From: Gammaproteobacteria bacterium
GTDB taxonomy: Bacteria; Pseudomonadota; Gammaproteobacteria; Natronospirales; REEB76
DNA: 64,000 bases
Direction of reading: 5' to 3'
NCBI GenBank assembly: GCA_036271575.1
Contig: DATBAJ010000060.1
Coordinates: 5,579 to 69,578 of the forward strand
In this document: one piece after another, positions 29,979 through 47,010 of the stretch
How positions within the stretch are numbered: the stretch's first letter is position 1
Layout: each line of letters begins with the position of its first letter
Translations under genes and position numbers: made by a program
The notes under the pieces: generated by a model
What the model was told of the DNA's origin: nothing
The model's database searches: none
Seen by the model: the letters and a program-made list of their open reading frames with translations, nothing else

Positions 29979-31706
29979 ATGAACCGCGACTACTACCAAG
30001 GCGAATTGAACGCGCTGCGCGAGCTGGCCAAGGAGTTCGCGGCGGCGCATCCGGCGCTGGCCTCGCGCCTCACCGGCCCGAGCCCGGACCCGGACGTGGA
30101 GCGCATCCTCGAGGGCGTGGCGTTCCTGACCGGCAGCGTGCGTGAGAAGCTCGACGACGACTTCCCGGAGCTGGCCCAGACCCTCACCCAGCTCATCTAT
30201 CCGCATTACCTGAAGCCGCTGCCGGCCACCACCATCGTGGAGTTCCGCCCCAAGGACACCCTGCGCCGCAACGCGGTGATCCCCACCGGCACCTACGTGG
30301 ATTCCAGCGAAGTGCAGGGCACCCACTGCCGCTTCCGCACCTGCTTCGACGTGCGCATCTCGCCCTTGAGCCTGGTGCAGGCGCAGCTCCTGGAACGTCC
30401 GGGCGGCCGGCGCGCCATCGACCTGACCCTGCAGCTGAACGGCCTGGCGCTCAGCCAGTGGGACGAGGAGAAGTTGCCGCTGTTCATCGGCGGCGACTTC
30501 GCCGGAGCCGCGGACCTGTACATGCTGTTGCTGCGCGGGTTGGAGCGCATCGTGATCTCCACCGGCGCCGGCGAGCACGAGTTGCCCGCCTCGGCGCTGA
30601 AGCCGCTCGGCCTGGATGACGCCCAGGCCATGCTGCCGCGGCCGTCGGCTACGCTGCCGGCTTTCGGCCTGCTGCAGGAGTATTTCCTGCTGAAGGAGAA
30701 GTTCCTGTTCGTGGAGCTGAGCGGCCTGCAGTCCTGGCGGCAGCGCGGCAACGGCAACCAGTTCCACGTGCGTTTCGACTTCGCGCCCACCGAGACGCGT
30801 TTCCCGGTGGTGGACCGCGAACGCTTCGTGCTGCACAGCACGCCGGCGGTGAACCTGTTCCGCCATGACGCGGACCCGATCCTGCTCACCCACCGCCGCG
30901 CCGCGGTGCGGGTGCGCCCGGCGGGCGTAAGCGACGGCAACATCCAGGTGTATTCCGTGGACGAAGTGGTGGGCCACACCCGCGGTTCGGCGCTGCGCCA
31001 GGAATACCGGCCGGTGAACCTGTACGGCGCCGGCAACGCGCAGGTGCCTTATTACGACATGCATTTCGTGCGCGCCGCCGAAGGCGGCGGCGTGGAGCCG
31101 CAGTTGACGGTGGCCTATCCGCCGGGCGTGGAACTGCCGGCGCAGCAGACCCTGATCCTGGGCCTGACCTGCAGCAACGGCCGGCTGCCCTCGCAGCTCA
31201 GGCCCGGCGACATCTCGCGTTCCACCAGCGGCACCTCGGACCTGATCTCGTTCCGCAACATCCTGCCCCCGGCCGACGGCGCCGAGCCGCCGCTGGGCGA
31301 GGCGGTGCTGTGGCGGCTGCTCTCGCACCTGGCCCTGAACTTCCTGCCCATCGCCGACGCGGAGACCCTGCAGGCACTACTGCGCCTCTACGTGGTGCAG
31401 GGCGGCGGCCAGTCGCCGCGCGAGGTGGCGAACCACCGGCGCATCGCCTCCATCTCCAAGGTGGCCGTGCGCGCCGGCGACCGGCTGTTCGGCGCGGGCA
31501 TGATGCGCGGGCAGGAGATCCGCGCCAGCCTGCGCCAGGACCACTTCGCCTCGGCGGGGGACATGTTCCTGTTCGGCAGCCTCCTGGACCGGGTGCTGGC
31601 GACATTCTCCACCCTCAACAGTTTCAGCCTATTCACGCTCATGGATGAGCAAACCGGAAGCAGCTATACATGGCCAGCGAGACTGGGCAAGCGCGCGCTG
31701 ATCTGA
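29979..31706 (+). CDS. tssF: T6SS baseplate TssF
   Basis: 'YYQGEL..LRELAKEFA..HP','DPDVERILEGVAFL','LDDDFPEL','PAVNLF','LWRLLSHL.LN','WP.R.G'. Confidence 0.96.
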   Translation: MNRDYYQGELNALRELAKEFAAAHPALASRLTGPSPDPDVERILEGVAFLTGSVREKLDDDFPELAQTLTQLIYPHYLKPLPATTIVEFRPKDTLRRNAVIPTGTYVDSSEVQGTHCRFRTCFDVRISPLSLVQAQLLERPGGRRAIDLTLQLNGLALSQWDEEKLPLFIGGDFAGAADLYMLLLRGLERIVISTGAGEHELPASALKPLGLDDAQAMLPRPSATLPAFGLLQEYFLLKEKFLFVELSGLQSWRQRGNGNQFHVRFDFAPTETRFPVVDRERFVLHSTPAVNLFRHDADPILLTHRRAAVRVRPAGVSDGNIQVYSVDEVVGHTRGSALRQEYRPVNLYGAGNAQVPYYDMHFVRAAEGGGVEPQLTVAYPPGVELPAQQTLILGLTCSNGRLPSQLRPGDISRSTSGTSDLISFRNILPPADGAEPPLGEAVLWRLLSHLALNFLPIADAETLQALLRLYVVQGGGQSPREVANHRRIASISKVAVRAGDRLFGAGMMRGQEIRASLRQDHFASAGDMFLFGSLLDRVLATFSTLNSFSLFTLMDEQTGSSYTWPARLGKRALI

Positions 31707-32674
31707 AGCGCGAGCTGATCGCGAACAGCAGGGAGTACGACTTCTACCAGGTCGTGCGCCTGTTGCAGCGCCTGCGTGGCGAAGAGGAGGGCGGCGGCGT
31801 GCGCTTCCGGCCCCTGCTCGGCCTGGAACGCAGCGAGTCCGGCATCGCCGGCATGCGCGAGACCGAGGCCGGCTACGAGATCGAACCGACCTTCATGGCG
31901 CTGTACGGCGCGTCCTCACCCCTGCCGGTGTGGTACACCAGCGAGTTGCTGGAAGACGAGTGGCATGAGCAATCCGCCGCCCGCGACCTCCTGGACATGC
32001 TGCATCAGCAGATCTATCCGCTGCTGTATGCCGCCTGGCGCAAGTACCGGTTCGCGCTCAATGCCATCGAGGCGGAAGGCGGGGGCGAGCGCTACTGGGG
32101 GATGCTGTACGCCTTCATGGGTCTGTACGACCCGCAGATGCGGGCGCGGGTGCCGGATGCCGCCGGCTTCCTGGGCCAGACCGGTCTCTTCTGCCGCCAG
32201 GCGCGCAGCGCCGCGGCGCTGGAGGCGATGCTACGCGCGAGCCTGGGGCGCCGTGACGTGGAGATCGTCGAGTGCGTGCCGCGCCAGGCGGCGATCCCCG
32301 CCGACCAGCGCCTCAACATCGGCAAGGCCGGCTGCACGCTGGGCAGCGACGCGGTGGTGGGCGAGCGGGTGCTGGACTGTTGCGGGCGTTTCCAGATCCG
32401 CATCGGGCCCATCGATGCCGAGACCTTCAGCCTGGCGACACAAGAGGGCGGCCTGATCGAACGCATCCGGCGCATCTGCACCGAGTTCCTGGTGCAGCCG
32501 CTGGAATGCGAGGTGGTGCTGGTGCTGGACGAGGGCGTCGTGCAGCCCGCGGCACTGGGCGGCAACGATCTCAATCAGATGATGGGATTGAACGGATTCG
32601 CGAGCCTGGGCACCGATGCCTGGGTGGTGGGCGGCACCAATGCCGCCGGCCTGGAAGTGGGATTCATGCTCTAG
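31670..32674 (+). CDS. tssG: T6SS baseplate TssG
   Basis: 'YDFYQVVRLL','FMALYGASSPLP.WYT','AWRKYR','F.IRIGP'. Confidence 0.93.
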   Translation: MASETGQARADLKRELIANSREYDFYQVVRLLQRLRGEEEGGGVRFRPLLGLERSESGIAGMRETEAGYEIEPTFMALYGASSPLPVWYTSELLEDEWHEQSAARDLLDMLHQQIYPLLYAAWRKYRFALNAIEAEGGGERYWGMLYAFMGLYDPQMRARVPDAAGFLGQTGLFCRQARSAAALEAMLRASLGRRDVEIVECVPRQAAIPADQRLNIGKAGCTLGSDAVVGERVLDCCGRFQIRIGPIDAETFSLATQEGGLIERIRRICTEFLVQPLECEVVLVLDEGVVQPAALGGNDLNQMMGLNGFASLGTDAWVVGGTNAAGLEVGFML

Positions 32675-32721
32675 GTTCAAGACGGCGGCCCGAGGCCGTA
32701 CCGTCCTAGGAGGTTAGCTGC

Positions 32722-34245
32722 GTGGCGACGCCGGTATTCACATTCAAGAGCACCGCTTATGCGGCGGACGTGTTCAGCGTGGTGGACTTCCAGGGCACGG
32801 AAGCCATCTCCAGCCTCTATCAGTTCGACATCGGCCTGAAGTGCGACGTCTCCAAGACCGTCGATCTGAACACCCTGCATGCGAGTGCGGCGACGCTCTC
32901 GATCGCCAGCGACGGGACGACCAACGCCTACAGCGGCGTCTTGGCCTGGGTGGAGCAACGGCAGGTGGCGGGCGGCTACCGCCATTACCGCGTGCGCCTG
33001 GTGCCGCCGCTGTGGCAGCTGTCCCTCAATACCGGAACCAGCGGTTTCGTCTCCCAGACCCATCTGCAGGTGCTGCAGCAGTTGTTGAAGAACGCCGGTT
33101 TCACCTCGGGCGTGGACTTCGACACCAGCGCCGCCATCGCGAAATATCCGCCGTACGACTTCACCTGCCAGTACCGCGAGAGCAACCTGGCCTTCGCCAG
33201 CCGCTTGATGGAATACGAGGGCATCTATTTCTATTTCGAGGAAGTGAACGGCCAGTGCAAGCTGATGCTGGCGGACGGACTCGCCTATCCGGCCTTGCCG
33301 GCCCACGCCACCATCCCCTTCACCGATCCCGGCAGCACCAAGGATTACGATTCCATCGTCGGCCTCACCCAGCAGCTGGCGACGGTGCCGGCCGAGGTGG
33401 TGGTCACCGGATACACCTACCAGCAGCCGACGCTGGCGGTGACCGGCACCGGCGCGGTGAAGGTGAACGGTAGCGCCGTGACCGGGAGCCACAAGGCCTG
33501 GCTCTACGACCACCTGGTGCAGGACACCGATGCGGTGAAGCAACTCGCCCAGGTGCGCGCCCAGGAACAGGGTTGCTGGGCCTGCGTGTATTCAGGCAGC
33601 GGCGCGGTGCCCGGCCTGCGCGCCGGCTACACTTTCACCCTGGAGAGCCATCCGGTCGCCGCTTTCAACCGCGGCTATCTGGTGGTCTCGGTACAGCATT
33701 CCGCGCGCAACCTCGACCAGAGCTGGGGCACCGGCAGCTCCGCTTCCCAGGATGGCGGCAGCAACGATGCCTATTACAGCAACCAGTTCACCCTGGTGCC
33801 CTCGGGTGTGCAGTTCCGTCCGCGCCAAGTCACGCCGAGACCGCGCGTGGCCGGCTTGTTGTCGGCGACGGTGTACCAGTCGGCAGCGGCCAATGCCCTG
33901 GACTATGTCACGGGTGCCGATTCCGTCACCGGCATCAACGCCTTCACCCTGCCCATACCGCCCATGGATGACCAGGGCCGCTATCAGGTGAGCCTGCCCT
34001 TCGCCGACGGTTCGGTGCCGGGCTCGAGCGCGGTGTCGGCGTCGATACGCATGGCACAACCCTCCGCCGGCATCGGCGACATCGACGGCTTCGGCAACGG
34101 CGCGCAGTTCATGCTGGAGCCCGGCGCCGAGGTGCTGCTGGCCTTCGTGGATGGCAACCCGGACCTGCCGCTCATCTGCGGCGCGGTATACAACGGCCGC
34201 ATGATCTCCTGGCTGACTTCCGCGGTCTCCGCGCTGGCCTTCTGA
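32722..34245 (+). CDS. vgrG: VgrG (TssI), gp27-like hub + gp5 OB-fold only; no C-terminal beta-helix
   Basis: 'F.GTEAISSLYQFDI','QYRESNLAF.SRLME.EGIYFYF','YSNQF...P....FRP','DDQGRY.V','RMAQP.AG','GAEVLLAFVDGNPDLP.I.GAVYN' then stop 16 aa later. Confidence 0.88.
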   Translation: MATPVFTFKSTAYAADVFSVVDFQGTEAISSLYQFDIGLKCDVSKTVDLNTLHASAATLSIASDGTTNAYSGVLAWVEQRQVAGGYRHYRVRLVPPLWQLSLNTGTSGFVSQTHLQVLQQLLKNAGFTSGVDFDTSAAIAKYPPYDFTCQYRESNLAFASRLMEYEGIYFYFEEVNGQCKLMLADGLAYPALPAHATIPFTDPGSTKDYDSIVGLTQQLATVPAEVVVTGYTYQQPTLAVTGTGAVKVNGSAVTGSHKAWLYDHLVQDTDAVKQLAQVRAQEQGCWACVYSGSGAVPGLRAGYTFTLESHPVAAFNRGYLVVSVQHSARNLDQSWGTGSSASQDGGSNDAYYSNQFTLVPSGVQFRPRQVTPRPRVAGLLSATVYQSAAANALDYVTGADSVTGINAFTLPIPPMDDQGRYQVSLPFADGSVPGSSAVSASIRMAQPSAGIGDIDGFGNGAQFMLEPGAEVLLAFVDGNPDLPLICGAVYNGRMISWLTSAVSALAF

Positions 34246-34255
34246 GGAACGAGGC

Positions 34256-36889
34256 GTGCCCGGCATCCGCATCACCAAGCCTTTCAAGCTCAGCCTGCTG
34301 CACCGTACCTACCAGTACCGGGGCGAGAACAAGCTGGCGGTGAGCGTGCTCGGCATGTTCTCCCTGACGGAACCGGGCAAGGTGTTGCCGGAGAACGAGC
34401 TGTGGCGCAAGACGGTGGGCGCGCTCGGCCGTGACGGCATGTTGGATGCGGCCATGCCCAAGTCCCGGGCGGAGTTCCTGGTGAACGGCAGCTTCCATGC
34501 GCCGGGCGGCACGCCGGTGCCAGCGGGCTACGCGCGGGTGAAGCTCGGCAAGCTGGACAAGCGCATCAACGTATACGGCGATCGCCATTGGAAACGGGCT
34601 GCCGGCGTCAGCGTCGGGGTCTCGGATCCCCTGCCCATGCAGGACATGCCGCTGGATTTCGCCCACGCTCTCGGCGGCAAGGAGCACAAGCCTAACCCGG
34701 TGGGCAAGGGCATCGACGCGCTCGAGGTGGATGGCGAGTCGCGCATCCTGCTGCCGAACCTGGAGCTGCCCGGCGCGCTCATCGGTTCGCCCTCAGACCG
34801 CCCGGCACCCGCCAGCTACGGCATGCTGGATCCCATGTGGCCGCAGCGCTACGCCAAGGTCGGCACCTACGACCAGAAATGGATGAAGGAGCGCGCCCCG
34901 GGCCTGGCGGATGACCTCAAGTGGGAATACTTCAACGTGGCCGCCGAGGACCAGTGGAGCGATGACTATTGGCGCGGCGACGAGGAGTTCGAACTCCACA
35001 ACCTGCATCCTGCGCGGCCCCTGATCCAGGGGCGCCTGCCGGGCCTGGCGGCGCGCGCCTTCGTGGTGCATGGCCACGGCAAGGACGGACGCCTGGAGGA
35101 ACTGGCGACGCGGCTCGACACCGTGCATTTCTTTCCCGGCGAGGAGGGCGGCATCTGCATCTGGCGCGGCGACACCCGCATCACGACCGACGACGCCAGC
35201 GACGTGGCGCAGATCATGATCGCCTACGAACGCAGCGCCGATCCACGCCGCAGCCTGGAACACTATCAGGACGCATTGCGCCGCCGCCTGGACCGGACCA
35301 GCCGGGCCATGCTGCTACTGGATGAGCGCGACCTCATCCCCGACGGCGACAAATCCGGCCTGGCGGAAGTCATCGAGCGCTCTACCGACCACGACAGCAA
35401 AGAAGGCCTGTTGGCCAAGAACCAGAAGCAGAGGATGAAGGAGGAGTCCGCCAAGACGCGGGCGCGGCTGGCGGAATTGGGGATAGACACCGCGGTGCCC
35501 GAACCGCAGGCGGAAGCATCCGTCCCCAACCGTGAGCTGCCCGACATCGCCAAGCTGTTAGCAGACGCCCACAAGCAGCGCGCAGCGGCAGAGGCACAGG
35601 CCAAGGAGAAGATGGAAGCCATGTGCAAGCAGCTGGGCATCGATCCCAGCAAGGTCATGGGTCCCAAAGCGGCCGCCAACTTGCCGCGCTTCTCCGCCGC
35701 GGAGCGCCTCGCCAAGGTACGGGCGATGCTGGATGGCAGTCCGGGCTCCGAGGAACTGCTGAAGAAGATGACCGGCATCTCCGATCTGCAGGTGCTGGAA
35801 GCCAAGTTCCAGGCGGCCGAGGATGCATTCCGCAGCAGCTATGCCCTGGCAGCCCATACCCTGAGCAGCGGGCTGCCGGCGGAGCGCCAGGCCGGGCTCG
35901 TGGCCTTGCGGGCGGAAGTGCTGCAACGCCTGAAGCACGGTGAGTCCCTGGCGCGCATGGACCTGGCGGGCGTGGACCTGTCCGGTGCGGACATGAAGGG
36001 CGCGGACCTCTCCGGGTGCTATCTCGAATACGCGAATCTATCCGGTGCCGACCTCACGGGCGCCAGGCTCAAGGGCGCCATCGCCACCCACGTCAACTTC
36101 AGCGGCGCCAAACTCACCCAGGCGGACTTTGCCGGCGCCAACCTCGGCAAGTCCAGTTTCGTGGATGCCAAGGGGGCGGGCGTCGACTTCAGCGGCGCGG
36201 TGGTGAGCGAGACCAGCTTCGAGGCGAGCGCCTTCCCGGGGGCGAAGTTCCTCGGCGGGCAGATGATGAAGACCGATTTCAGCGGCGCCGATTTCAGCCG
36301 CACCGACTTCCAGAAGCCGCTGTTCATGGATTGCCGGCTGGACGGCGCCAAGCTGACCGGTGCGACACTGCAGCGGGCCATCGTCATGGGCGGCAGCGCC
36401 AAGGGCCTGGACCTGAGCGAGGCCCGGGGCGAGGCCCTGCTGTTCGTGAACGTGGACCTGGATCATCTCAAGGCGGCGCGGGCCGAGATCAACAAGCTGC
36501 GCCTGGTGGGCGCAGAGACCCGCGCGCGCGGCGCCGACTTCAGCGGCGCCAAGCTGCCGGGCTCCAACCTGCGCGGCATCGACCTGGAGGAAGCCAACTT
36601 CGAGCGCTCCATCCTGGATGGGGCGGATCTGAGCGAAGCCAGCTTGCGCAAGGCGCGCTTCCAGGGAGCCAGTGCCCAGCGCGCCCATTTCATGCAGAGC
36701 GACCTGGAGGGAGCGAAGCTCTCCAACTGCAACCTCAAGGAGGCCATGCTCAACAAGGCGCGCCTGGTGCAGGCAGACCTGACCGGCTCCAACTGCTTCG
36801 GCGCCGAGTTCCTGGGAGTGACGGTGGGTGAGACCCGTTTCCACGGTGCCAACCTCAAGCGCACCAAGCTCAAGGACTGGCACCCGTGA
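34256..36889 (+). CDS. DUF2169 domain + pentapeptide repeats (TagAB-like spike chaperone)
   Basis: 'LD..MPK..AEFLV.G','VYGDR.W','NPVGKG','LPNLE','WPQR...GTYD..W','FN.A..DQW','LDTV' and C-terminal A[D/N]LxG repeats. Confidence 0.88.
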   Translation: MPGIRITKPFKLSLLHRTYQYRGENKLAVSVLGMFSLTEPGKVLPENELWRKTVGALGRDGMLDAAMPKSRAEFLVNGSFHAPGGTPVPAGYARVKLGKLDKRINVYGDRHWKRAAGVSVGVSDPLPMQDMPLDFAHALGGKEHKPNPVGKGIDALEVDGESRILLPNLELPGALIGSPSDRPAPASYGMLDPMWPQRYAKVGTYDQKWMKERAPGLADDLKWEYFNVAAEDQWSDDYWRGDEEFELHNLHPARPLIQGRLPGLAARAFVVHGHGKDGRLEELATRLDTVHFFPGEEGGICIWRGDTRITTDDASDVAQIMIAYERSADPRRSLEHYQDALRRRLDRTSRAMLLLDERDLIPDGDKSGLAEVIERSTDHDSKEGLLAKNQKQRMKEESAKTRARLAELGIDTAVPEPQAEASVPNRELPDIAKLLADAHKQRAAAEAQAKEKMEAMCKQLGIDPSKVMGPKAAANLPRFSAAERLAKVRAMLDGSPGSEELLKKMTGISDLQVLEAKFQAAEDAFRSSYALAAHTLSSGLPAERQAGLVALRAEVLQRLKHGESLARMDLAGVDLSGADMKGADLSGCYLEYANLSGADLTGARLKGAIATHVNFSGAKLTQADFAGANLGKSSFVDAKGAGVDFSGAVVSETSFEASAFPGAKFLGGQMMKTDFSGADFSRTDFQKPLFMDCRLDGAKLTGATLQRAIVMGGSAKGLDLSEARGEALLFVNVDLDHLKAARAEINKLRLVGAETRARGADFSGAKLPGSNLRGIDLEEANFERSILDGADLSEASLRKARFQGASAQRAHFMQSDLEGAKLSNCNLKEAMLNKARLVQADLTGSNCFGAEFLGVTVGETRFHGANLKRTKLKDWHP

Positions 36890-37935
36890 CCCGCGAGGAA
36901 CTGGAATCCGCCATCGCCCGCGGCCAGCCGATCCGCGACCAGGACTTCTCGGGCGCCAAGCTGGCGGGGGCGAAGCTCGGCGGCGGCATCTTCGAGCGCG
37001 TGAAGTTCGACGCGGCCGACCTTGCCGGCGCCAGCCTGCGCGAGAGCCTGCTCACTTCAGTGGACTTCAAGGCCGCGGCGCTCGCCGGTGCGGACCTGCA
37101 ACACAGTGTGTTTTCCAAGTGCAGCTTCGAGAAAGCGCGGCTGGACGGCGCCAACCTCAGCCGCAGCCAGTTCATGGAGGCCGAACTCTCGGACGCGGCC
37201 ATGGCAGGGGTGGGGCTGGAACGCACGGTGCTGCACCAGTGCCGCCTGCTCCGCGCGGGTCTGGCGAAGGTGCACTTCGACAAGACCCTGATCTTCGAGA
37301 CCCAGATGATGGGCGCGGACCTTTCCGGCGCACGCTTCACCCATGTGGTACTGATGAACGGCGACTTCAGCGGCTGCCGCTTCGACGGCTTCTCGGCGCA
37401 GCAGGCCTTCCTGCAGGGCGGCAAGTTCGCGGGCCTGGACCTCTCGGGGCTCAGCTTCGCCGCCTGCCAGCTGCGCAACTGCGACCTGACGGGCACCAAG
37501 TTCCGCAAGGCCATGCTGGAGCGGACCGGCTTCATGGAATCGAAGCTCCAGGGCGCGGACTTCTCCGGCGCGCGCCTCGCCAACACGGTGTTCTCCGGCG
37601 CGGACCTGGAAGGCGCAGACCTCTCGAGCAGCGACCTGACCCAGGCCCATTTCCAGGGTGCCAGGCTGCGGCGCGCGCGCTTCGACAAGTGCCGCCTCGA
37701 CATGGCGCAGCTCACCGATGCCGATTTCACCGCGGCCAGCTTCAAGGGCTGCGAGATGAGCTATACGGATCTCTCCCGTTCGATACTGGATGGCGCGGAT
37801 TTCTCCGACGCCAACATGTTCAAGGCCAGGCTGCACGCCATCCATGAAGATGCGACCCGCTGGCCCGCGAGCAAGAACCTGGCCTCCGGTACCGATCCCG
37901 ATCAACTCGAAGCCGAGACCTGGCGACCCGCCTAA
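36886..37935 (+). CDS. Pentapeptide repeat protein (TagB-like)
   Basis: Nearly continuous (A/x)(D/R)(L/F)xx repeats. Confidence 0.9.
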   Translation: MTREELESAIARGQPIRDQDFSGAKLAGAKLGGGIFERVKFDAADLAGASLRESLLTSVDFKAAALAGADLQHSVFSKCSFEKARLDGANLSRSQFMEAELSDAAMAGVGLERTVLHQCRLLRAGLAKVHFDKTLIFETQMMGADLSGARFTHVVLMNGDFSGCRFDGFSAQQAFLQGGKFAGLDLSGLSFAACQLRNCDLTGTKFRKAMLERTGFMESKLQGADFSGARLANTVFSGADLEGADLSSSDLTQAHFQGARLRRARFDKCRLDMAQLTDADFTAASFKGCEMSYTDLSRSILDGADFSDANMFKARLHAIHEDATRWPASKNLASGTDPDQLEAETWRPA

Positions 37936-37938
37936 ACG

Positions 37939-38598
37939 ATGGAGCACAACGCCATGCAGACCCAGATCAAATCCAATTACACGGCCGCGGCCGACCTGGT
38001 CCAGGCCAAGGTGGTGGACGCCGGCGAGGACATCTGCCGGCTCACGGGCCCCGCCGGCAGCTTCACCGCGCGGCGCGCCGTCTCCTGCCTGCTGCAGCCG
38101 GCCGCGGGTGACACGGTGCTGGCCGCCGAGGTGGCGGGCAGTACCTGGATACTCGCGATACTGGTGCGGGGCGAGAGCCCGGCCGTGCTGCAGTTGCCCG
38201 CGGACAGTACCGTGAAGGTGGCGCAGGGCGGGCTCAAATTCGCCGTGCAGGAAGACCTCACGCTGGCGGCGGGCCGCGAGCTCAGCGCCGTGGCGCCGCA
38301 GGTCACGGTGCAGGCGGTGCGGGCCGGCTTCACGCTGGGCGCGCTGCAACTGGCGGCGGGCCTGGTGGAGGCGACGGTGGAACAGGTGAAGACCGTCGCC
38401 GAGTTCCTGGACACGGTGGCAGAGCGGGTGCGCCTCAAGGCCGGCTCCTCGCACCGCGAAGTGGAGGACCTGGAGCACCTGCAGGCCGGGCAGCTGTATT
38501 ACTCGATCAAGAACGTGCTCAACCTGCGCGGCAAGCACGCCGTGATGTCCGCCGAGAGCGAAGTGCGCCTCGACGGCGAGCGCATTCACCTGGGCTGA
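37939..38598 (+). CDS. DUF3540-like protein (TagC-like)
   Basis: 'ARRAVSCLLQPAAGD.VL','WILAIL','S.R.V...E.L.AG','V.LDGERIHLG'. Confidence 0.82.
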   Translation: MEHNAMQTQIKSNYTAAADLVQAKVVDAGEDICRLTGPAGSFTARRAVSCLLQPAAGDTVLAAEVAGSTWILAILVRGESPAVLQLPADSTVKVAQGGLKFAVQEDLTLAAGRELSAVAPQVTVQAVRAGFTLGALQLAAGLVEATVEQVKTVAEFLDTVAERVRLKAGSSHREVEDLEHLQAGQLYYSIKNVLNLRGKHAVMSAESEVRLDGERIHLG

Positions 38599-38609
38599 GG
38601 AGACATTCC

Positions 38610-39014
38610 ATGTTCGTCAACACGCAGATGGGCGGGCTCGCCTTCGGTTTCCCGGACGTGTGCTTCACGCCGATCCTGGTGCCGGTGCCGATCCCCTACC
38701 CGAACTTCGCCACCGGGCTCCTGGCCATGCCCTTCACCGCGGCGCTGAACGTGCTGAACGAGTGCATGCCGACCCACACCATCTCCACCATGGGCACCAT
38801 CAGCTTCGGCGACCAGCCGGGCATCGAGCTGGGCATCCTCTCGGGCCTGTTCATGGGGCCATGCCACACGCTGATCCCGAGCTTCACGCTGCTGAGCGAC
38901 GGCATGCCCACCTCGCGGCTCACCAGCATGACCGCCCATAACGGCTTCGCCCTCAACGCGCCCGGCCTGTCCATCGTGCCGAGCCAGTTCACCACCCTTT
39001 GCCTGATGCCCTGA
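38610..39014 (+). CDS. DUF4150 / PAAR-like spike tip protein (PIPY motif), no fused toxin
   Basis: 'FPDVC.TP..VPVPIPYPN','S.GD.PG...GI.SG','S.T....G.P..RLT..T.HN','PSQ'. Confidence 0.88.
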   Translation: MFVNTQMGGLAFGFPDVCFTPILVPVPIPYPNFATGLLAMPFTAALNVLNECMPTHTISTMGTISFGDQPGIELGILSGLFMGPCHTLIPSFTLLSDGMPTSRLTSMTAHNGFALNAPGLSIVPSQFTTLCLMP

Positions 39015-39039
39015 ACGGGCGCATCGCAGGAGTCTCGCC

Positions 39040-40407
39040 ATGGCCATGAACCGCGTCCTCAACTCCATCTGGGCAGAGATATCCGCCTGGGGTTCGATCG
39101 TCAAGACCGCCACCAACCCCTACACACCGAGCCCCGGCTCGGCCGATGACACTTCCAACAACCAGGGCCTGGCGGCGCTCGCCAGCGGCTCGCCATTCAT
39201 CGTGGTGAACCGCTCCGGCGTCTCGCCGGACGTGGCGGTGGGCACCAACCTCGTGGACGGCGCCAACGCCTCGCCCAGCGCCATCGAGGAGAACAACGGC
39301 GCCTACCAGGTGGTGCGGCAGTACGGCGACATCTACCTGTTCAACGACGGCAACGTCATCGCCTGGGGCGGCAATGGCAAGAACTTCAGCTTCGGCAACG
39401 GTTATGAAGAGAACCACGCCTGGGCCAACCAGGCCTGTGTCTATAACAACGAGACCTTCCAGATCCCGCTGGGGGCCATGTCCTCGTTCAGCCCGAGCAC
39501 GCTGCCCAACGGCATGTTCCCGGATTCGAGCGCAGCGATCAGCGACTGGGAATGGCTCGGCGGCAACGTGTCCAAGAGCTGGGGCAACGACTACAGCTAC
39601 AGCTACGGACGCTCCTATGAATGGAGCGGGGGCCCGAACAACTACGTGGATGCCTTCGGCAACACCGGTGCCGCGCTCACCGACGTGATGCAGGGCAAGC
39701 ATTGCAGCTTCAGCTACGGCAACGGCTACGAGGAGGCGCTGATCGGATGGACCCCCACCAGCACCTGGTTCCATGCCGACGACGCGAGCTCGCCTTACAA
39801 GAGCCGCGTCAGCGACAGCTGGACCTCATCCAACCTGGGGTCCAGCTGGACCGCGGCCAACCTGCTGGTGTCCAAGGCCTTCGGCCCCACCTACGATTAC
39901 CACTACGGCCCGACGCTGTCGGTACAGGAGGGGCCGAGCGAGGAGCACGTCAACGGCTCCAGCTGGAGCACGGTGACCGGCGACAGCAACGAGACCGTGA
40001 ACGGCAACAGCAGCAGCACCGTCAACGGCAACGCCAACGACACCATCAACGGCGACCAGACCGCCATGATCAAGGGCACCGCCCTCGAGCAGCACTGGGG
40101 CCGCAAGTCGGAATTCTTCATGGGCGGCAAGAGCGAGATGTCACTGGCCGCCTGCGACGAGATCAACCTGGCCGCCAAGCTGGAGATCGTCGGCGGCGTC
40201 GCCACCGAGATATTCCTGGGCGCCAAGCTGGAGGTGGCCCTGGGCGCGCTCATGGAGATCAAGGTCGCCGGGGCCTTCGAGGTGAACAACGGCGCCAAGA
40301 TCGAGATCACCAATGGTGCCAAGCTTGAGATCGACAACGCCGTGGAGGTGGAGGTGACGGACCTGGCCTCGGTGTCCAGCGCGCTGGTGAAGATCTTCGC
40401 CCCCTGA
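39040..40407 (+). CDS. Hypothetical protein with C-terminal gp5-like octapeptide beta-helix repeats; candidate detached spike
   Basis: About 18 consecutive 8-aa repeats (NETVNGNS, SSTVNGNA, NDTINGDQ ... IEITNGAK); last gene of the T6SS run. Confidence 0.65.
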   Translation: MAMNRVLNSIWAEISAWGSIVKTATNPYTPSPGSADDTSNNQGLAALASGSPFIVVNRSGVSPDVAVGTNLVDGANASPSAIEENNGAYQVVRQYGDIYLFNDGNVIAWGGNGKNFSFGNGYEENHAWANQACVYNNETFQIPLGAMSSFSPSTLPNGMFPDSSAAISDWEWLGGNVSKSWGNDYSYSYGRSYEWSGGPNNYVDAFGNTGAALTDVMQGKHCSFSYGNGYEEALIGWTPTSTWFHADDASSPYKSRVSDSWTSSNLGSSWTAANLLVSKAFGPTYDYHYGPTLSVQEGPSEEHVNGSSWSTVTGDSNETVNGNSSSTVNGNANDTINGDQTAMIKGTALEQHWGRKSEFFMGGKSEMSLAACDEINLAAKLEIVGGVATEIFLGAKLEVALGALMEIKVAGAFEVNNGAKIEITNGAKLEIDNAVEVEVTDLASVSSALVKIFAP

Positions 40408-40413
40408 CGGGGA

Positions 40414-41082
40414 TCAGCTCACCGCAGCCAGCAGCGCGGCGCCCGCCTCGATCGGCGTCGCCTGGCTGAGGTCGGTCTGCTGGGGCAGGGCGAACTTCCT
40501 GCCGCCCTCGTCCTTGGGCATCAGCGCCAGCGGGCTCTGCATCACGCCCACGATGCGTCCGCGCCGCACGTCGATGAGCGGACCGCCGACGGTGCCGGAA
40601 TAAGCCGAACCTTCCACCAACAACTGCCGGTCGCCCGCGGGTCCCAGCACCTTGGCGGCGAGACAGCCGCTGCGGGTGATGAGCGCGAGGGAGCCGTGAC
40701 GGCCGAAGGCGAAGCCCAGATACATGACCTCGGTGCCGGGGATGAGCATGGCGCTGTCACCCAACAGATCAGGAGGCAGGCGCAGCTGGGCCGGATCGGC
40801 TAGTTTCAGGAGCGCCACGCCATTGGAGGCGTCCACCTTCACCACCACGGCCGGGAAGCAGTTCAACTTGTCGCGGCTCGTGGGCTGGAATCCCGTGGGA
40901 TCCTCGGCGGGTGAGACCAGGAGCTCGGTCTTGTCCTTGACCAACTCGGCGGCGGTGAGCAGGTAACCGTCTTCGCGCACGGCGAAGGCGCTGCCCAGGA
41001 AATCCACGGCATTGGTGGCCGGGTTCCTCTCCAGCAGCATCGCGCAGGAGGGTGCCAGGGTCTGGAAGAGTTGTTCCATCAC
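40414..41082 (-). CDS. Trypsin-like (HtrA-type S1) protease fold lacking the catalytic triad
   Basis: 'GSAFAV..DGYLLTAAELV','GVALLK','GTVGGPLID..RGRIVGV'. Confidence 0.75.
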   Translation of the reverse strand: MMEQLFQTLAPSCAMLLERNPATNAVDFLGSAFAVREDGYLLTAAELVKDKTELLVSPAEDPTGFQPTSRDKLNCFPAVVVKVDASNGVALLKLADPAQLRLPPDLLGDSAMLIPGTEVMYLGFAFGRHGSLALITRSGCLAAKVLGPAGDRQLLVEGSAYSGTVGGPLIDVRRGRIVGVMQSPLALMPKDEGGRKFALPQQTDLSQATPIEAGAALLAAVS

Positions 41083-41133
41083 GTGGGGGATACCGCTGTC
41101 GGGGCGCTCAGCATTCTGCCACAGGCGCGCGGC

Positions 41134-44100
41134 CTATCGCGGCGGCGGCGCATCCTGCGGCGGGCAGCTGGAGGCAGCGGGTGCGGCAGCGCTGGCCGCA
41201 GCAGGCGCCGCGGCGCTGGATGCGGCGGGCGGACACACGGGTTTCGCCGGCTTGGCAGGTTCCTCACAGACCCAGCCGGTCGAAGTCTCATAGGGCGTGC
41301 CGCCTTGAGCGGTGCACCAGGCCATGGGGTACTGCTCCAGGGGCGACGCGTCCGGCATGGTCGGTGGCACCGGCGGCGGCACGCTACCGCCGAAGGTGAA
41401 TTCGACGCCGAGCGAGAGCAGGAGGTCGTTGTAACCGCTGAACACGTGCTGCACCGCGAGGTCGGCGCGGAAGCGCAGCGGCAGCGAACGCCAGGGGGCG
41501 CTGTTGATGCCGGCACCGAACTTGAGATAGGCGCTTCTCACCTTGCTGTCGTCACCGCGGTACTGGTCGGCGAGGCCGAGACCCGCATCCAGGAACGGCG
41601 AGAACACATCCGACTTGTGCTCCTGGAAATACCACAGGCCGTCGGCACCGTAGGTCTTCCAGTTGGCGAGATCACCGAGTGCCTGCGGCGCATCGGCATG
41701 GTATTGGGCGTCGAACTCCAGGGCGAAATCGCCGAGGTCGCGGCCAACCAGGAGGCCCCAGCCCTTGAGACCGCCGCCGGAGGCGTCGCGCTTGGAGTCG
41801 GGCTTGATGAGGTTGGCGTCGCCGCCCACGTACCAGGCATCGGTGACGGGCGCCTCGACGACCGGAGCGGGTGCGTCGTCGGACAGCACGGTCGCGGGCA
41901 GGGCCGTAGCGGCGAAGACGGCCAGCATCGCCCAGCACCGGCGTGCTGTATATAAGCGCCGCCCCAGTGACAGCAAGGCCAGCAGCATGAGGATGAAGCT
42001 CCCGTAAGAACCTTTGCCCACGAGGGAGGGTCCGCCGTGGTGCACCGGTGCCGGCGGCGCCGGCACCACCGTGATCTCGACCGCGGCCGCGGTGGAGACG
42101 AGTTTGGAGACTGTGTCGGTGGCGGTATAGGCGAAGCTGTCGCTGCCGGTGAAACCGGCGGCAGGCGTGTAGCTGAAGCCGCCGTCGCCGGCCTGGAGCG
42201 TGAGGCTGCCGTTCTTGGGTTTGGTGGTCACGGCGTAGGTCACCGGGTTGCCATTCACATCCACCGCCGATACCGCGCTGTCGATGGGCTGGCCGGAATA
42301 TACGCTGAGCGCGAGCCCGTTGGCGAGGGGCGCCACCGCCTGCAGCGGCGGGCTGACCACGGTGACGGCGAGGGTGGCGGCGCTGGACATGAGATGGGTC
42401 ACCTTGTCGGTGGCGACGAAGCTGAAACTGTCCTTGCCGGTGTAGCCCGCCGTCGGCGAATAGCTGTAGACGCCGCTCGCCGCCGTGACCTTGACGCTGC
42501 CGTGGGCCGGCTTGCTCTTGAGGGCATAGCTTAAGGTATCGCCGCCCACGGTCACCGCGGCGAGCAGGCCCTTGAGCACCTGACCCTGGTACACCGAGAC
42601 ACTGGCGCCGGATGCCAAGGGTGCGACCCCGGTGATGGGCGTGGCGCTGACGTCGAGCGTCACGGTGGCGGCGCTGGAGGCGGCGTTGCTGCTGGTATCG
42701 ATGGCCGTGAACGTGAAACTGTCGCTGCCGGTGAACCCGGCGGGCGGAGTGTAGGTGAACGCGCCGGTGGCGGCGGTGAGGCTGACAGTGCCATGGTCCG
42801 GCTGCACCACCGAGAACTCGACCGGGTTGCCGGCAGCATCCGCCGCCGCCAGCGTGCCGCTCAGGGGCTGATCCTGATAGAGCGTGAACGCGGCATCGCT
42901 CACCTGCGGCGGCGTCGCGGGCGGCGGAGCGGTGGCCACCGTGATCGATACCGTGGCGTTGGCGGAGACCACGCCGGTGCCGTTGTCAGTGGCGGTGAAG
43001 CTGAAGCTGTCGGCGCCGGTGTAGGTCGGAGTGGGCGTGTAGGTGTAGAGGCCGCTGTTGGTGGTGAGGTTCAGGATGCCATGGGTCGGCTGGCTCACCG
43101 CCGTGTAGGTGAGGGCGTTGCCGCCGGCGCTGGCCGCCGAGACCCGGGCGCTCAGCACCTGGCTCTCGTAGACCGTCACCGATGCATTGCCGGCGAGCGG
43201 CGCCGCGGTGCTGGGATCGGAACCGGGCACCGGATCCACCGACAGGGTCACCGTGGCCGGCGCGGATATGGCTAGGGTGGTGTTGTCGGTGACGGTGAAA
43301 GTGAAGCTGTCGGCGCCGATGTAGGATGCGGTGGGCGCATAGGTGAAGGCGCCGGTGGCCGCGTTCAAGCTCAGGATGCCATGGGCGGGGCCGACCGCGA
43401 CCGCATAAGTGAAAGCGTGGCCGCCGCCGTCGCTGGCGGGCAGGGCGCCCGCCACCGTGACATTCTCGTAGGTCGCCACCGACAGGTTGGAAGCCACGGG
43501 ACCCGGCGGCGGCAGGGCGCTGACGCTCAGGGTCACGGTGGCGGGATCCGAGGTCTGGGTGATGCTGGTGTCGGTGGCGGAGAAACTGAAGCTGTCGGGA
43601 CCGATGTAGCCCGCCGCGGGCGTATAGGTGAAGGCACCGGTGCCGCCGGTCAGGTTCAGGACGCCGTGGCTGGGGAGGGTGACCGGCGCATAAGTGAGGG
43701 GATCACCGGCGGCTTCACTGGCAGTGACTGCAGCGCTCACCACCACGTTCTCGTAGGCCGGGAACGCCGCGCCATTGGCCACAGGCTTGGCCGGCGCCGC
43801 GGGCGGCAGTGCCACCATGGTGAGCGTGATGGTGGCGCTGGTGGAACTCACCGTGGTGATGGCGTCGCTGGCGCTGAAGGTGAAGCTGTCCCTGCCCACG
43901 TAGCCCGTGGCCGGCGTGTAGCTGAAGGCACCGCTGGCCGGGGTCACGGTCACGGTGCCGTGAGCGGGGGCGGTGACCCGCAGATAGTTGAGCGCGTTGC
44001 CGGCGGCATCGCTGGCGCTCAATTGGCCGGTCACCGTCACGTTCTCATAGGTGGTGAAGGAGGCGCTGCCCACCACCGGCGCGGCCTTGTCGGACACCGG

Positions 44101-47010
44101 TACGGCCGTCACCGTCACGCTCACCTGGGCGGAGGAGGAGACGAGCTTGCTGACACCGTCGGTGGCGGTGAAACTGAAACTGTCGGCACCGGTATAACCC
44201 GCCGCCGGACTGTAGGTGAAGACGCCACTCGCCGCCGTCACGGCGACGCTGCCATGGGCGGGTTTGCTCGCGGTGAAGGTCAGCGCATTGCCGGCGGCGT
44301 CGCTGGCGCTGAGCGTGCCCTTCACCGGTGTGCCGGAATAGGTGGCAAGCGTCATGGCACTGGCGATGGGCGCCACGCTGTTGGCGCCTCCGCCACCGCT
44401 GCTCCCGCCGCTTCCGCTCCCACCACTCCCGCTTCCACCGCCGCTGCCTCCGCCGCTACTACCACCGCCGCTGCTGCCGCCTCCGGTACCAGTGGTGCTG
44501 ACTGAGAGGCTGACGGTGGCCGGGTTGGACTTGGCCTTGAGCACGGTGTCGGTGGCGGTGTAGGTGAAGCTGTCGCTGCCGGTGAAGCCCGTGGCCGGCG
44601 TGTAGCTGAAGGCGCCGGTGCTGGCGTCGGTGATCTTGACGCTGCCGTGGCTGGGTGCAGTGCCGACGGCGAAACTGGGCGAGGCGCTGCCGGTGGCGGT
44701 GAGGGTGCCGCTGAACGCGGTGTTCTCGGTGATGTTGAAACTCAGGTTGGAGACCGTGGGTGCGCCCGGCGGCGGAGGCGGCAAGGTCACGGTGATGCTG
44801 TCGGTGGCAAGGTTGGAATCCAGGCTGCCGTCGTTGGCCTTCCAGGTGAACTTGTCGGAACCGATGAAGCCATCGTTCGGCGTGTAGGTGAAGGCGCTGC
44901 TGCCGGCGCTGCTGAGCTTGAGCTTGCCGTGGGCTGGCTGGGTCACGATGATGAAGCTCAGCGTGGCATCGAGCGCTTCGGTGGCGGACAAGGCGGCATT
45001 CAAGGTCTGGCCCGACGCCACTGTGAGAGTATCGTCGTCCTTCGCCACCGGTGCCGGCGGGATGATGGTCTGGGTGAAGCTGCCGTAGCCGGTCTGGCCG
45101 TAACCGTTGGTGACGGAGAGGGTCACCAGGACCGTGCCGGTACCCTTGGCGGTGGGCTTGACGCTCAGGGAACAGGCATCCAGCGCCAGGCTCGCGCCGC
45201 AATTGGAGGAGAGCGTGAGGCTGGCGGCAGGCAGGATCGAGCTGTCCGAGGAGGTAACGGCGACACCGAGGTGCGGTTGGCTGCCGGTGTTGCCGCTGAG
45301 GTTGAAGGCCTGCTGCGAGGCGCTGCCGCCGGCGATGGCCGTGGCGTCCTGCAGCCCGCTGACGGCGGGAGCCTTGATCTGGGTGAAGCTGAATTCATAG
45401 GCGCCGATGTCCGGCGCCACGTCCCGCACGTAGCCGCGCTGGTCGAGCAGCGGCGCACCGCTGGTGTTCCCGCCGTTGAACGCCGCGCCGATGATGATGG
45501 CCATGGTCTGGGTCGGGCCGCCGTTGTTGGCGAGCGGCAGCAGCGCGGGGCTGGTGAACTGGTCGCTGCCCACGAGGCAGGAGGCGGAAGTCGGGCCGAC
45601 CACATCGTGGCCGCCGCTCAAGCTGCCGCCGGCGTTCTCGCAGTCGATCGCGGCGCTGCTGGTGGTGTTGCCGGAGGTATCGGTGGTGAGCTGCAGGGAG
45701 CCGTACATGATCGATGAGTCCACATCCAGGCTGGCGGCTGCGGAAGCGTCGGCCGCCGGCGAACCGGGTGTGGCGAGCCGCAGGCTGTAGACCGCGCCGC
45801 CGGACACGGCGGATCCGGACAAGGTATTGCCCGCCAGCGTGGAGTAACTGATGGTGATGCTGCCGTTGAGGTTGAAGATCGCGGCGCCGAGTCCTTCGGC
45901 CTGACCGAATCCGGCCGCGCCGCCGGCACCGCCTTGTGAGCTGTTGGCAGTGAGGGTGCAGTTCTGCAGCGTCACGCTGCCGCCTTCGTTGAAGATGGCG
46001 CCGCCCATGCCTGCGCCGCCGCCGTCGAAGACGAGGCCGAAGCCGCCGCCGAAGCCGCCGGGACTGATCCCGCCGCCACCACCGCCGAAACCGCCGAACC
46101 CGTTGATGCCGCCGCCACCACCACCGAAACCACCGTTCTTGCCGTTGCCGCCGCCGCCGCCCACGCCGCCGGCCTGGCCGGGGCCGCCGCCGTTGCCGAA
46201 CTCGCCGGGCGGGGTGTTGCTGTCGGGCCAGGGCGGGTTACTGCTGAAACCGCCGCCTTCGCCGAAGCTGTCGCCGCTGCCGCCCATGCCGCCGCCGCCG
46301 CCCGGATCGCCGTTGTTGGTGGTGTTGGTGCTGCCGCCGGCGCCGCCGCTGGCCTGGTTGCCCACCAGGGTCACGCCTTGGAGCGTGAGCGTGCCCTGGT
46401 TGTAGATGGCGCCGCCGGCACCGAGTCCACCGCCGCCGCCGCCCAGCGCGCTGCTGCCGCCGGCGCCGCCTTGCGCCAAGCCGTTCTCCAGCGTGAGGTT
46501 GATGAGCGTGAGGTTGCCGTGGGACGGCAAGCTGGTGAACACGACCTTGCCGTTGCCGTCCTGGGGCGGGTTGTAAGCGCTCAAGGATTCGCCGCCGCCG
46601 ATATAGAAGATGCGGAACGGCGACACGCCCTGGTTGGGGCTGCGCATGATGACGGTGCCCTTGGGGTCGCCGACGATGGTGATCCTGGAGGTGATGGGCG
46701 GCAGACCGTTGGGGCCGTACCAGTCGTTGTCGGCGGTGCCGATCTTGTAGGTGCCGGCGGCGAGCACGATCACATCGCCGCCGTTGGTCTTGTCGTCGCC
46801 CGCGGGACAGGCGCCGGTCTGGCTGTTGCTGTTGGCGGCGTTGATGGCGTCCACCAGGGAACAGGAATTGTTGCCCGCACCCACCGCCGCGGCCGCGACC
46901 CTGATGACGTTGGCCTGGGCTCCGGCCGCGGACGCCGCCAGCGCCGCCGCCAGCAGCAGGCTGGCACACCAGCGGGGCCGGACGAGGCGGACAGGGCCGG
47001 ATTGGGACAT
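41134..47010 (-). CDS. Large surface/adhesin protein: CSLREA-like start, Gly-rich beta-helix, choice-of-anchor-Q-like motif, 10 Ig-like ~95-aa repeats, internal TM pair, 8-stranded OM barrel
   Basis: Signal peptide; 'CSLVDAINAAN'; GGAI(Y/F)N repeats; 'LANNGGPTQT...DQRG..R...DIGAYE'; ten 'P.HG...G.F.Y.P..G..G.DSF.F' repeats; barrel 'WYVGG...LSLGVEFTF'. Confidence 0.85.
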   Translation of the reverse strand: MSQSGPVRLVRPRWCASLLLAAALAASAAGAQANVIRVAAAAVGAGNNSCSLVDAINAANSNSQTGACPAGDDKTNGGDVIVLAAGTYKIGTADNDWYGPNGLPPITSRITIVGDPKGTVIMRSPNQGVSPFRIFYIGGGESLSAYNPPQDGNGKVVFTSLPSHGNLTLINLTLENGLAQGGAGGSSALGGGGGGLGAGGAIYNQGTLTLQGVTLVGNQASGGAGGSTNTTNNGDPGGGGGMGGSGDSFGEGGGFSSNPPWPDSNTPPGEFGNGGGPGQAGGVGGGGGNGKNGGFGGGGGGINGFGGFGGGGGGISPGGFGGGFGLVFDGGGAGMGGAIFNEGGSVTLQNCTLTANSSQGGAGGAAGFGQAEGLGAAIFNLNGSITISYSTLAGNTLSGSAVSGGAVYSLRLATPGSPAADASAAASLDVDSSIMYGSLQLTTDTSGNTTSSAAIDCENAGGSLSGGHDVVGPTSASCLVGSDQFTSPALLPLANNGGPTQTMAIIIGAAFNGGNTSGAPLLDQRGYVRDVAPDIGAYEFSFTQIKAPAVSGLQDATAIAGGSASQQAFNLSGNTGSQPHLGVAVTSSDSSILPAASLTLSSNCGASLALDACSLSVKPTAKGTGTVLVTLSVTNGYGQTGYGSFTQTIIPPAPVAKDDDTLTVASGQTLNAALSATEALDATLSFIIVTQPAHGKLKLSSAGSSAFTYTPNDGFIGSDKFTWKANDGSLDSNLATDSITVTLPPPPPGAPTVSNLSFNITENTAFSGTLTATGSASPSFAVGTAPSHGSVKITDASTGAFSYTPATGFTGSDSFTYTATDTVLKAKSNPATVSLSVSTTGTGGGSSGGGSSGGGSGGGSGSGGSGSGGSSGGGGANSVAPIASAMTLATYSGTPVKGTLSASDAAGNALTFTASKPAHGSVAVTAASGVFTYSPAAGYTGADSFSFTATDGVSKLVSSSAQVSVTVTAVPVSDKAAPVVGSASFTTYENVTVTGQLSASDAAGNALNYLRVTAPAHGTVTVTPASGAFSYTPATGYVGRDSFTFSASDAITTVSSTSATITLTMVALPPAAPAKPVANGAAFPAYENVVVSAAVTASEAAGDPLTYAPVTLPSHGVLNLTGGTGAFTYTPAAGYIGPDSFSFSATDTSITQTSDPATVTLSVSALPPPGPVASNLSVATYENVTVAGALPASDGGGHAFTYAVAVGPAHGILSLNAATGAFTYAPTASYIGADSFTFTVTDNTTLAISAPATVTLSVDPVPGSDPSTAAPLAGNASVTVYESQVLSARVSAASAGGNALTYTAVSQPTHGILNLTTNSGLYTYTPTPTYTGADSFSFTATDNGTGVVSANATVSITVATAPPPATPPQVSDAAFTLYQDQPLSGTLAAADAAGNPVEFSVVQPDHGTVSLTAATGAFTYTPPAGFTGSDSFTFTAIDTSSNAASSAATVTLDVSATPITGVAPLASGASVSVYQGQVLKGLLAAVTVGGDTLSYALKSKPAHGSVKVTAASGVYSYSPTAGYTGKDSFSFVATDKVTHLMSSAATLAVTVVSPPLQAVAPLANGLALSVYSGQPIDSAVSAVDVNGNPVTYAVTTKPKNGSLTLQAGDGGFSYTPAAGFTGSDSFAYTATDTVSKLVSTAAAVEITVVPAPPAPVHHGGPSLVGKGSYGSFILMLLALLSLGRRLYTARRCWAMLAVFAATALPATVLSDDAPAPVVEAPVTDAWYVGGDANLIKPDSKRDASGGGLKGWGLLVGRDLGDFALEFDAQYHADAPQALGDLANWKTYGADGLWYFQEHKSDVFSPFLDAGLGLADQYRGDDSKVRSAYLKFGAGINSAPWRSLPLRFRADLAVQHVFSGYNDLLLSLGVEFTFGGSVPPPVPPTMPDASPLEQYPMAWCTAQGGTPYETSTGWVCEEPAKPAKPVCPPAASSAAAPAAASAAAPAASSCPPQDAPPPR

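Follow-up and report, generated by a model that had tools for sequence, protein, structure and literature searches.

A large adhesin-like protein with an internal GlyGly-CTERM-like tag, a predicted second signal peptide and an OmpA-type β-barrel in one open reading frame

GlyGly-CTERM sorting tags normally stand at the end of a protein. Here, we present an analysis of a gene in which a GlyGly-CTERM-like tag stands in mid-protein, between a large adhesin-like region and a predicted second export signal followed by a small outer-membrane β-barrel. FbcH of Bradyrhizobium japonicum is a precedent for one gene giving two envelope proteins via an internal signal peptide; however, FbcH belongs to a respiratory complex and has neither a sorting tag nor a barrel.

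The closest described layout is that of MXAN_5598 of Myxococcus xanthus, an adhesin with an internal MYXO-CTERM tag, a barrel and an OmpA domain, which was likened to TraA plus TraB and whose N-terminal part was proposed to be processed and anchored at the surface (PMC11980579). Like MXAN_5598, our protein combines a large adhesin region, an internal tripartite tag and an outer-membrane β-barrel in one ORF; however, its tag is of the GlyGly type that is associated with rhombosortase and has no Cys, and its tail carries a Cys pair rather than an OmpA domain. Moreover, the passage on MXAN_5598 calls the arrangement atypical and makes no mention of a second signal peptide, while in our case the arrangement recurs as a conserved cassette that follows many passengers. 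In myxobacteria, TraA and TraB are a tag-sorted surface adhesin and a protein with a signal peptide, a barrel, TSP3 and an OmpA domain, in a 1:1 ratio (PMC12045341, PMC3325183). They are encoded by two overlapping ORFs with a different tag and different passengers, while the gene described here is a single ORF; the resemblance that we draw is one of layout, not of kin recognition or membrane exchange.

According to work on the VesB pathway (PMC6219818, PMC3237569, PMC13393428), the T2SS transports a rhombosortase-processed, lipid-anchored protein, as shown for VesB (PMC6219818), and GlyGly-CTERM is transferable in Vibrio cholerae (PMC13393428). Like these proteins, ours has a Gly motif, a Leu-rich helix and a basic cluster, and rhombosortase and T2SS genes are present in its genome; unlike VesB-type tags, its tag stands some 290 residues ahead of the C-terminus, is followed by a second signal and a barrel, and misses the TIGR03501 profile. 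Cleavage at a central tripartite tag has been shown for HVO_0405 of Haloferax volcanii (PMC7157517), which differs in that it depends on an archaeosortase, is described as a strain-specific fusion and has no outer-membrane barrel. NCBIfam also includes a family named midcut-by-XrtH. The GlyGly version of the layout was not found in the literature searched, which was mostly open access with main texts in part; supplementary Table S1 of PMC11980579 and of PMC3237569, both outside this search, might list internal tags. The gene described here exemplifies a GlyGly/rhombosortase form of a layout that has a single mention in the literature searched; its barrels make up a clade of their own, and passengers and tags can be exchanged. 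An earlier note on this DNA had called the export strategy unusual; given the MYXO-CTERM version in PMC11980579, it is less unprecedented than that.

An adhesin-like region and an outer-membrane barrel share a reading frame

The gene lies in a window of 64,000 nucleotides, the whole stretch analyzed, from an uncultured Gammaproteobacteria bacterium (contig DATBAJ010000060.1; genome 72% complete). Our analysis confirmed that one frame, free of internal stops, encodes a large adhesin-like protein, a tag, a predicted second signal for export and a small barrel of the outer-membrane type (Table 1). This is the succession that the earlier note had read, and the positions it quoted for GKGSYG (42018-42001), for WYVGG (from 41835) and for LSLGVEFTF (ending at 41392) are exact. 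Because 10 of 16 alternative frames across the junction are likewise open in this GC-rich DNA, the open frame by itself is weak evidence. A sequencing artifact was ruled out by 26 homologues and by one public contig that covers 41000-43000, possibly DNA of the same source, with a sole difference at 41515. Records of such proteins are currently labeled simply "Ig-like domain-containing", and such proteins might also be mistaken for autotransporters.

Table 1. Features of the gene, given in window positions
Feature	Position	Strand	Size or basis
Whole ORF: passenger, internal sorting tag, second signal, barrel and tail	41134..47010	-	1958 aa
Predicted N-terminal Sec signal peptide, residues 1-32, A-Q-A at its end	46915..47010	-	by sequence
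Gly-rich head, probably β-helical, with a weak CSLREA-like start and choice-of-anchor Q at residues 488-540	45391..46914	-	
Stalk of ten Big_9 / tandem-95 Ig-like repeats, approximate limits	42064..45054	-	PF17963 in 10 stretches; NF012211 296 bits
Internal GlyGly-CTERM-like tag, HHGG...GKGSYG, Leu-rich helix and Arg-Arg, residues 1657-1685	41956..42042	-	
Basic linker and predicted second signal peptide, residues 1686-1710; likely signal peptidase I site V-L-S|D	41881..41955	-	
Short polar linker and 8-stranded OmpA/NspA-type β-barrel, strands from 41835	41392..41880	-	
Pro-rich tail, presumably periplasmic, that includes a small, conserved domain with a Cys pair (C1899, C1915)	41137..41391	-	85 aa

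Within the head, choice-of-anchor Q is matched by NF041518 at 49.8 bits, and the CSLREA-like start by TIGR04214 at E 0.034, below the cut-off. As a lead only, the head has Atlas look-alikes at 0.91, and Beta_helix is found in 42% of the members of the top cluster.

In an AlphaFold2 model built on a 27-row alignment (pLDDT 77.9), the region behind the tag forms eight strands, mostly at pLDDT 83-94, preceded by two junction helices of low confidence. Foldseek matched this model to OmpA (E 1.6e-7), NspA (2.8e-7) and OprF (2.5e-6) and also to Ail, with E-values of 1.6e-7 to 2.7e-6 overall, in agreement with the eight strands proposed from the letters. VIA-align of the first model, which was built on nine rows, gave Z 9.9 for OmpA, 9.6 for OprF and 6.0 for the best autotransporter row; that model had no Foldseek match at E≤0.001. 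A PDB sequence search with a junction-plus-barrel profile returned only six unrelated ligases at E about 0.6, and PF13505 (OMP_b-brl) matches six of nine aligned members and misses the window copy. Loops 1, 3 and 4 of the barrel are conserved like the strands (0.70-0.78 versus 0.62-0.74). The tail has no Pfam match and contains blocks at pLDDT 80-83. Its Cys-pair domain stands in place of the C-terminal peptidoglycan-binding domain (PF00691) of other OmpA-type proteins, which is present in P0024, L127, L146 and L147, giving these a barrel plus OmpA domain as in TraB; the Cys-pair domain is itself missing from L014, P0017 and P0019-P0022.

The internal tag and the rhombosortase and T2SS genes

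The tag comprises a Gly/Ser-rich motif, a Leu-rich transmembrane helix and a basic cluster, as the earlier note had proposed for a GlyGly-CTERM-like anchor; however, it has no match to TIGR03501 (cut-off 15.5 bits). The motif is atypical, with a Lys inside it and the GG 11 residues ahead of the helix, and the tag is not at the extreme C-terminus, since 292 residues follow the start of the motif. GKGSYG lies where the earlier note had placed it, while the conserved Gly-Gly, which is invariant among aligned homologues, is that of HHGG (42042-42031), just beyond the range that the note had given. Three profiles of GlyGly proteins (RbtA, SVAGG and rhom_dep_M36) match the window tag weakly with their C-terminal ends; the match to Rhombotarget A (TIGR04212; 13.4 bits) covers the last 90 profile positions only and does not reach the equivalog cut-off of 295 bits. 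The motif contains no Cys, and the tag has no match to TIGR03901 (MYXO-CTERM).

The orthologous tags of genomes G022, G020 and G016 score 20.3, 15.0 and 12.8 bits on TIGR03501, and those of G022 and of P0010 (15.1 bits) are of the textbook GGGA-F/L type. On a family-specific model, the window tag scores 8.2 bits versus 20.8-38.1 bits for the four clear terminal tags of the same genome, the best-scoring of which was within the training set of the model; among the 26 fused sequences, the model took the wrong helix in L007 and gave 3.9-23.8 bits in the other 25. The window copy is a weaker example than several of its orthologues. Degenerate tags stand at true C-termini in this genome too: an 899-aa frame (G000:C12:22177-24873, minus strand) ends in a tag-like tail that TIGR03501 misses and that scores 7.3 bits on the family model.

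The first helix of the fused sequences contains 46% Leu, 4% Val and 4% Ile, similar to the 41%, 4% and 2% in 21 terminal tags of the same family; a Leu-rich, Val/Ile-poor skew is described as typical of the GlyGly-CTERM helix (PMC3237569). Ordinary proteins with Ig-like repeats, a GlyGly tag and then a stop coexist in the family, in which 22 of the 30 TIGR03501 loci examined end no more than 14 residues past the tag. In the fused sequences, the residues ahead of the Gly-Gly form a short recurring peptide, while most terminal tags have Ser/Gly runs instead.

Genes for rhombosortase and the T2SS, to which the earlier note had pointed, were both found over cut-off in the genome of the window (rhombosortase TIGR03902 142.7 bits, GspD 534, GspE 711). 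The rhombosortase gene (L001, G000:C71:35617-39069) immediately precedes gspG- and gspH-like genes of the same orientation, which links the sortase physically to the T2SS. Rhombosortase over cut-off is found in seven of eight cassette genomes of the family and in five of five cassette genomes of other families; it was not found over cut-off in G022 (86% complete) and G060 (71% complete), and its co-occurrence with the cassette is non-discriminating because 33 of 41 genomes of the family have it.

Conservation of the junction and spread of the cassette

The junction is in frame, behind different passengers, in all 26 homologues examined, which are related to one another and include several near-copies. 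Each has a first helix, a basic linker (4-53 residues) and a second hydrophobic stretch, the hairpin that the earlier note had described, and the linkers hold 110 Lys/Arg versus 5 Asp/Glu, i.e., a positive-inside arrangement. With a pN of 0.17-0.56 versus 0.02-0.21 in the barrel, the junction drifts while its features are kept; the second segment diverges rapidly, as is usual for signal peptides, next to a conserved barrel and tail.

The second segment, a short stretch rich in Ala (23%), occupies the position of the signal peptide in stand-alone OmpA paralogues. We scored it with a home-made matrix; for its training, 50 of 67 candidate N-terminal signals from stand-alone barrels were retained, of which 49 had a site. 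The median was 9.4 for the 26 internal segments, 12.6 for these 49 presumably true signals, each scored while left out of the training, and 3.6 for 417 internal transmembrane helices; because the matrix is home-made and the sequences are related, we draw no p-value from these scores, nor do we rely on a first-helix control that in a few rows extended into the second segment. The window's own second signal scores 6.8, a value that 21% of control helices attain, and its four closest homologues score 0.3-8.9. A strict A-x-A cut site is present in 15 of the 26 fused sequences, and in all 26 a small-x-small site precedes a small or polar residue, which is a permissive pattern for proteins rich in Ala; V-L-S-D-D is present in five of the five closest sequences. 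The best-scoring cut lies 5-23 residues ahead of strand 1.

The whole junction plus barrel is present without a stop in 7 of 60 relatives (50-62% identity) and, at 40% identity, in G060 of another family, for which the single stop listed is the terminal one. Within the family, 8 of 41 genomes have a full-length match, none with a stop inside; within the order, the barrel type (E below 1e-80) occurs in 9 of 66 genomes and is fused in all nine, where misses do not equal absence because most genomes of the order surveyed are incomplete. Homologues with this barrel subfamily have no stop after the tag, so the fused architecture that the earlier note had read is conserved. Altogether, the feature is real and conserved.

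Among 1.84 billion representatives, 11 clusters were found at E≤1e-30, ten of which have tag, second signal and barrel. The eleventh (P0023, 152 aa) has a barrel only, begins at a Met inside strand 1 without a signal and is probably a fragment. A tree was built from 50 barrels, namely the 26 fused ones, P0023 and 23 stand-alone ones chosen from the same search, with P0007, P0008, P0009 and P0016 omitted as locus duplicates. In it, the fused sequences and P0023 are one side of a branch at 100/99, adjoining stand-alone OmpA-like proteins; the tree has a midpoint root only. The passengers ahead of the cassette include Big_9, choice-of-anchor D, FG-GAP, YVTN-propeller and Calx-beta, and in P0024, a whole OmpA-type protein, i.e., barrel plus OmpA domain, stands behind the tag. 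The relatives with named records are Gammaproteobacteria MAGs. A class-wide search of 400 genomes with the barrel profile, scoring up to six candidates per genome, gave no further copy of the clade, and a plasmid search gave 26 records with matches confined to the Ig repeats.

A junction-only profile had matches in 42 of 400 genomes of the class, and 35 of the 50 places outside the genome of the window were inspected (29 loci and six chosen for long matches). Among these were at least six further genes with a tag, a signal and a PF13505-type barrel (L120, L122, L127, L145, L146 and L147), spread over five genomes and four other families, three of them with an OmpA domain; the other 29 places comprised 24 terminal tags and five unrelated sequences. 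The barrel of L145 scores 27.1, just below the Pfam cut-off. On TIGR03501, the tags of L145 and L122 score 16.5 and 15.3 bits, while L120, L127 and L146 have no match; L147 (G108:C3:14241-14411) has an internal JDVT-CTERM tag (31.3 bits; cut-off 27), followed by a signal, a barrel and an OmpA domain, so that JDVT is the third type of tag in this layout. Because the profile of the window barrel missed these six barrels, the layout is wider than one clade.

One genome (G393) has two different tag-signal-barrel genes, L145 and L127, and L145 carries an unannotated C-terminal domain behind a Pro/Ala linker. At another locus (L090, G023:C4:259438-259506), a TIGR03501 match over cut-off is followed by 276 residues that include an apparent lipoprotein signal; this is possibly another internal tag or a stop loss.

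Proposed processing, alternatives and neighboring genes

We consider it probable that one precursor is cut twice at the inner membrane to give an adhesin for the cell surface and, separately, a barrel for the outer membrane. The direct results concern anatomy, conservation, fold and the presence of the enzyme genes; they support the earlier note's reading of the gene as a polyprotein, and the two-product processing and the 1:1 partnership are inferred. In this model, the N-terminal signal would direct export of the passenger via Sec, the Leu-rich helix of the tag would act as a stop-transfer sequence, and the Arg-rich linker would stay in the cytoplasm. Acting as an internal signal peptide, the second hydrophobic segment would start translocation anew, and cleavage by signal peptidase I at V-L-S|D would leave the barrel free for assembly by BAM. 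Rhombosortase cleavage behind a Gly of the tag would give an adhesin with a glycerophosphoethanolamine anchor, which would reach the surface via the T2SS, as in the VesB pathway.

The alternative that holds up best, though we regard it as unlikely, is that signal peptidase I alone cuts and frees the barrel, while the degenerate tag of the window's subgroup is no rhombosortase substrate; the Ig chain would, as a consequence, be anchored in the inner membrane or released by another protease, e.g., GlpG. The atypical motif of the window tag and its lack of a TIGR03501 match argue for this scenario, as do the two incomplete cassette genomes in which no over-cut-off rhombosortase was found; however, orthologous tags are of textbook types, and a β-helical head on a ten-repeat stalk would suit a role at the surface.

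Somewhat less probable is an accidental or neutral fusion via stop-codon loss that has no function, with the barrel made from its own internal start. A junction of this kind is found at L034 (G397:C24, protein P0067), where a textbook GlyGly tag after Big_9 repeats is followed, without a stop, by a Shine-Dalgarno-like AGAGGA, an ATG, a Tat-like signal and an unrelated delta-60-repeat passenger; L034, from a genome with rhombosortase, is an adhesin-adhesin tandem and possibly a stop-loss intermediate. In some homologues of the window gene, ATG, GTG or TTG likewise occur near the second segment. However, no internal start codon is conserved; in L008 and L014, the stretch from the Arg cluster to the second segment has none at all, and a Met stands in only 4 of 26 linkers. 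Moreover, the barrel clade is fused in every genome that has it and in all but one of the clusters.

The periplasm is about 15-20 nm wide. If the protein remained uncut, its hairpin would sit in the inner membrane and its Ig chain in the periplasm, with the barrel either tethered or folded in place; however, only 5-23 residues separate the predicted cut from strand 1, too few for a tethered barrel to arrive at the outer membrane. Although the weak signal-peptide scores in the window's subgroup would suit an uncut protein, the second segment is short, rich in Ala and placed like the signal peptide of stand-alone OmpA paralogues, and we judge this scenario improbable. It is highly improbable that the passenger is exported or covalently held by the barrel, as the type Va-like order of passenger and barrel might suggest, since the 12-stranded barrel of type Va autotransporters follows the passenger directly, whereas the barrel here has eight strands, resembles OmpA more than any autotransporter row and is set off from the passenger by a hydrophobic hairpin of two helices and a basic loop, in a genome with a T2SS.

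In the last step of the model, the barrel, made 1:1 with the adhesin, might serve as its outer-membrane partner, as TraB does for TraA. Taken by itself, we rate this role as about evenly balanced, based on the TraAB analogy, the conservation of loops 1, 3 and 4 and the recurring peptide ahead of the Gly-Gly. More tentatively, and doubtful in our own estimate, tag, second signal and barrel may form a general portable module of diderm envelopes, in which a dedicated barrel, translated together with its passenger, docks the sortase-made C-terminus and fixes T2SS-exported adhesins 1:1 to a base in the outer membrane. Such a module would accept any passenger and interchangeable tags (GlyGly, JDVT, MYXO), and the docked end in the clade of the window barrel would be a short conserved peptide with Gly-Gly at its end (PVHHGG, LAVRGG or LARRGG type), held by the conserved loops of the barrel. 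If the two-cut model is true, the halves of one chain would take two export paths, rhombosortase and the T2SS versus signal peptidase I and BAM, and "C-terminal" sorting tags would operate routinely in mid-protein. Because the gene itself names the partner, it would allow a direct test of the role of TraB-like barrels for tag-sorted adhesins.

Directly downstream of the adhesin gene lies a trypsin-like ORF (40414-41082, minus strand), which we do not count in the unit because such a gene is adjacent in three of eight relative loci, examined with short flanks; judged by eye, its catalytic His and Ser motifs seem to depart from the usual form, and it may be inactive. A T6SS-type cluster (29979-40407, plus strand) encodes TssF, TssG, a VgrG-like protein, DUF2169 with pentapeptide repeats, a pentapeptide protein, DUF3540, a PAAR-like protein and a 455-aa ORF with a weak gp5 trimer match.
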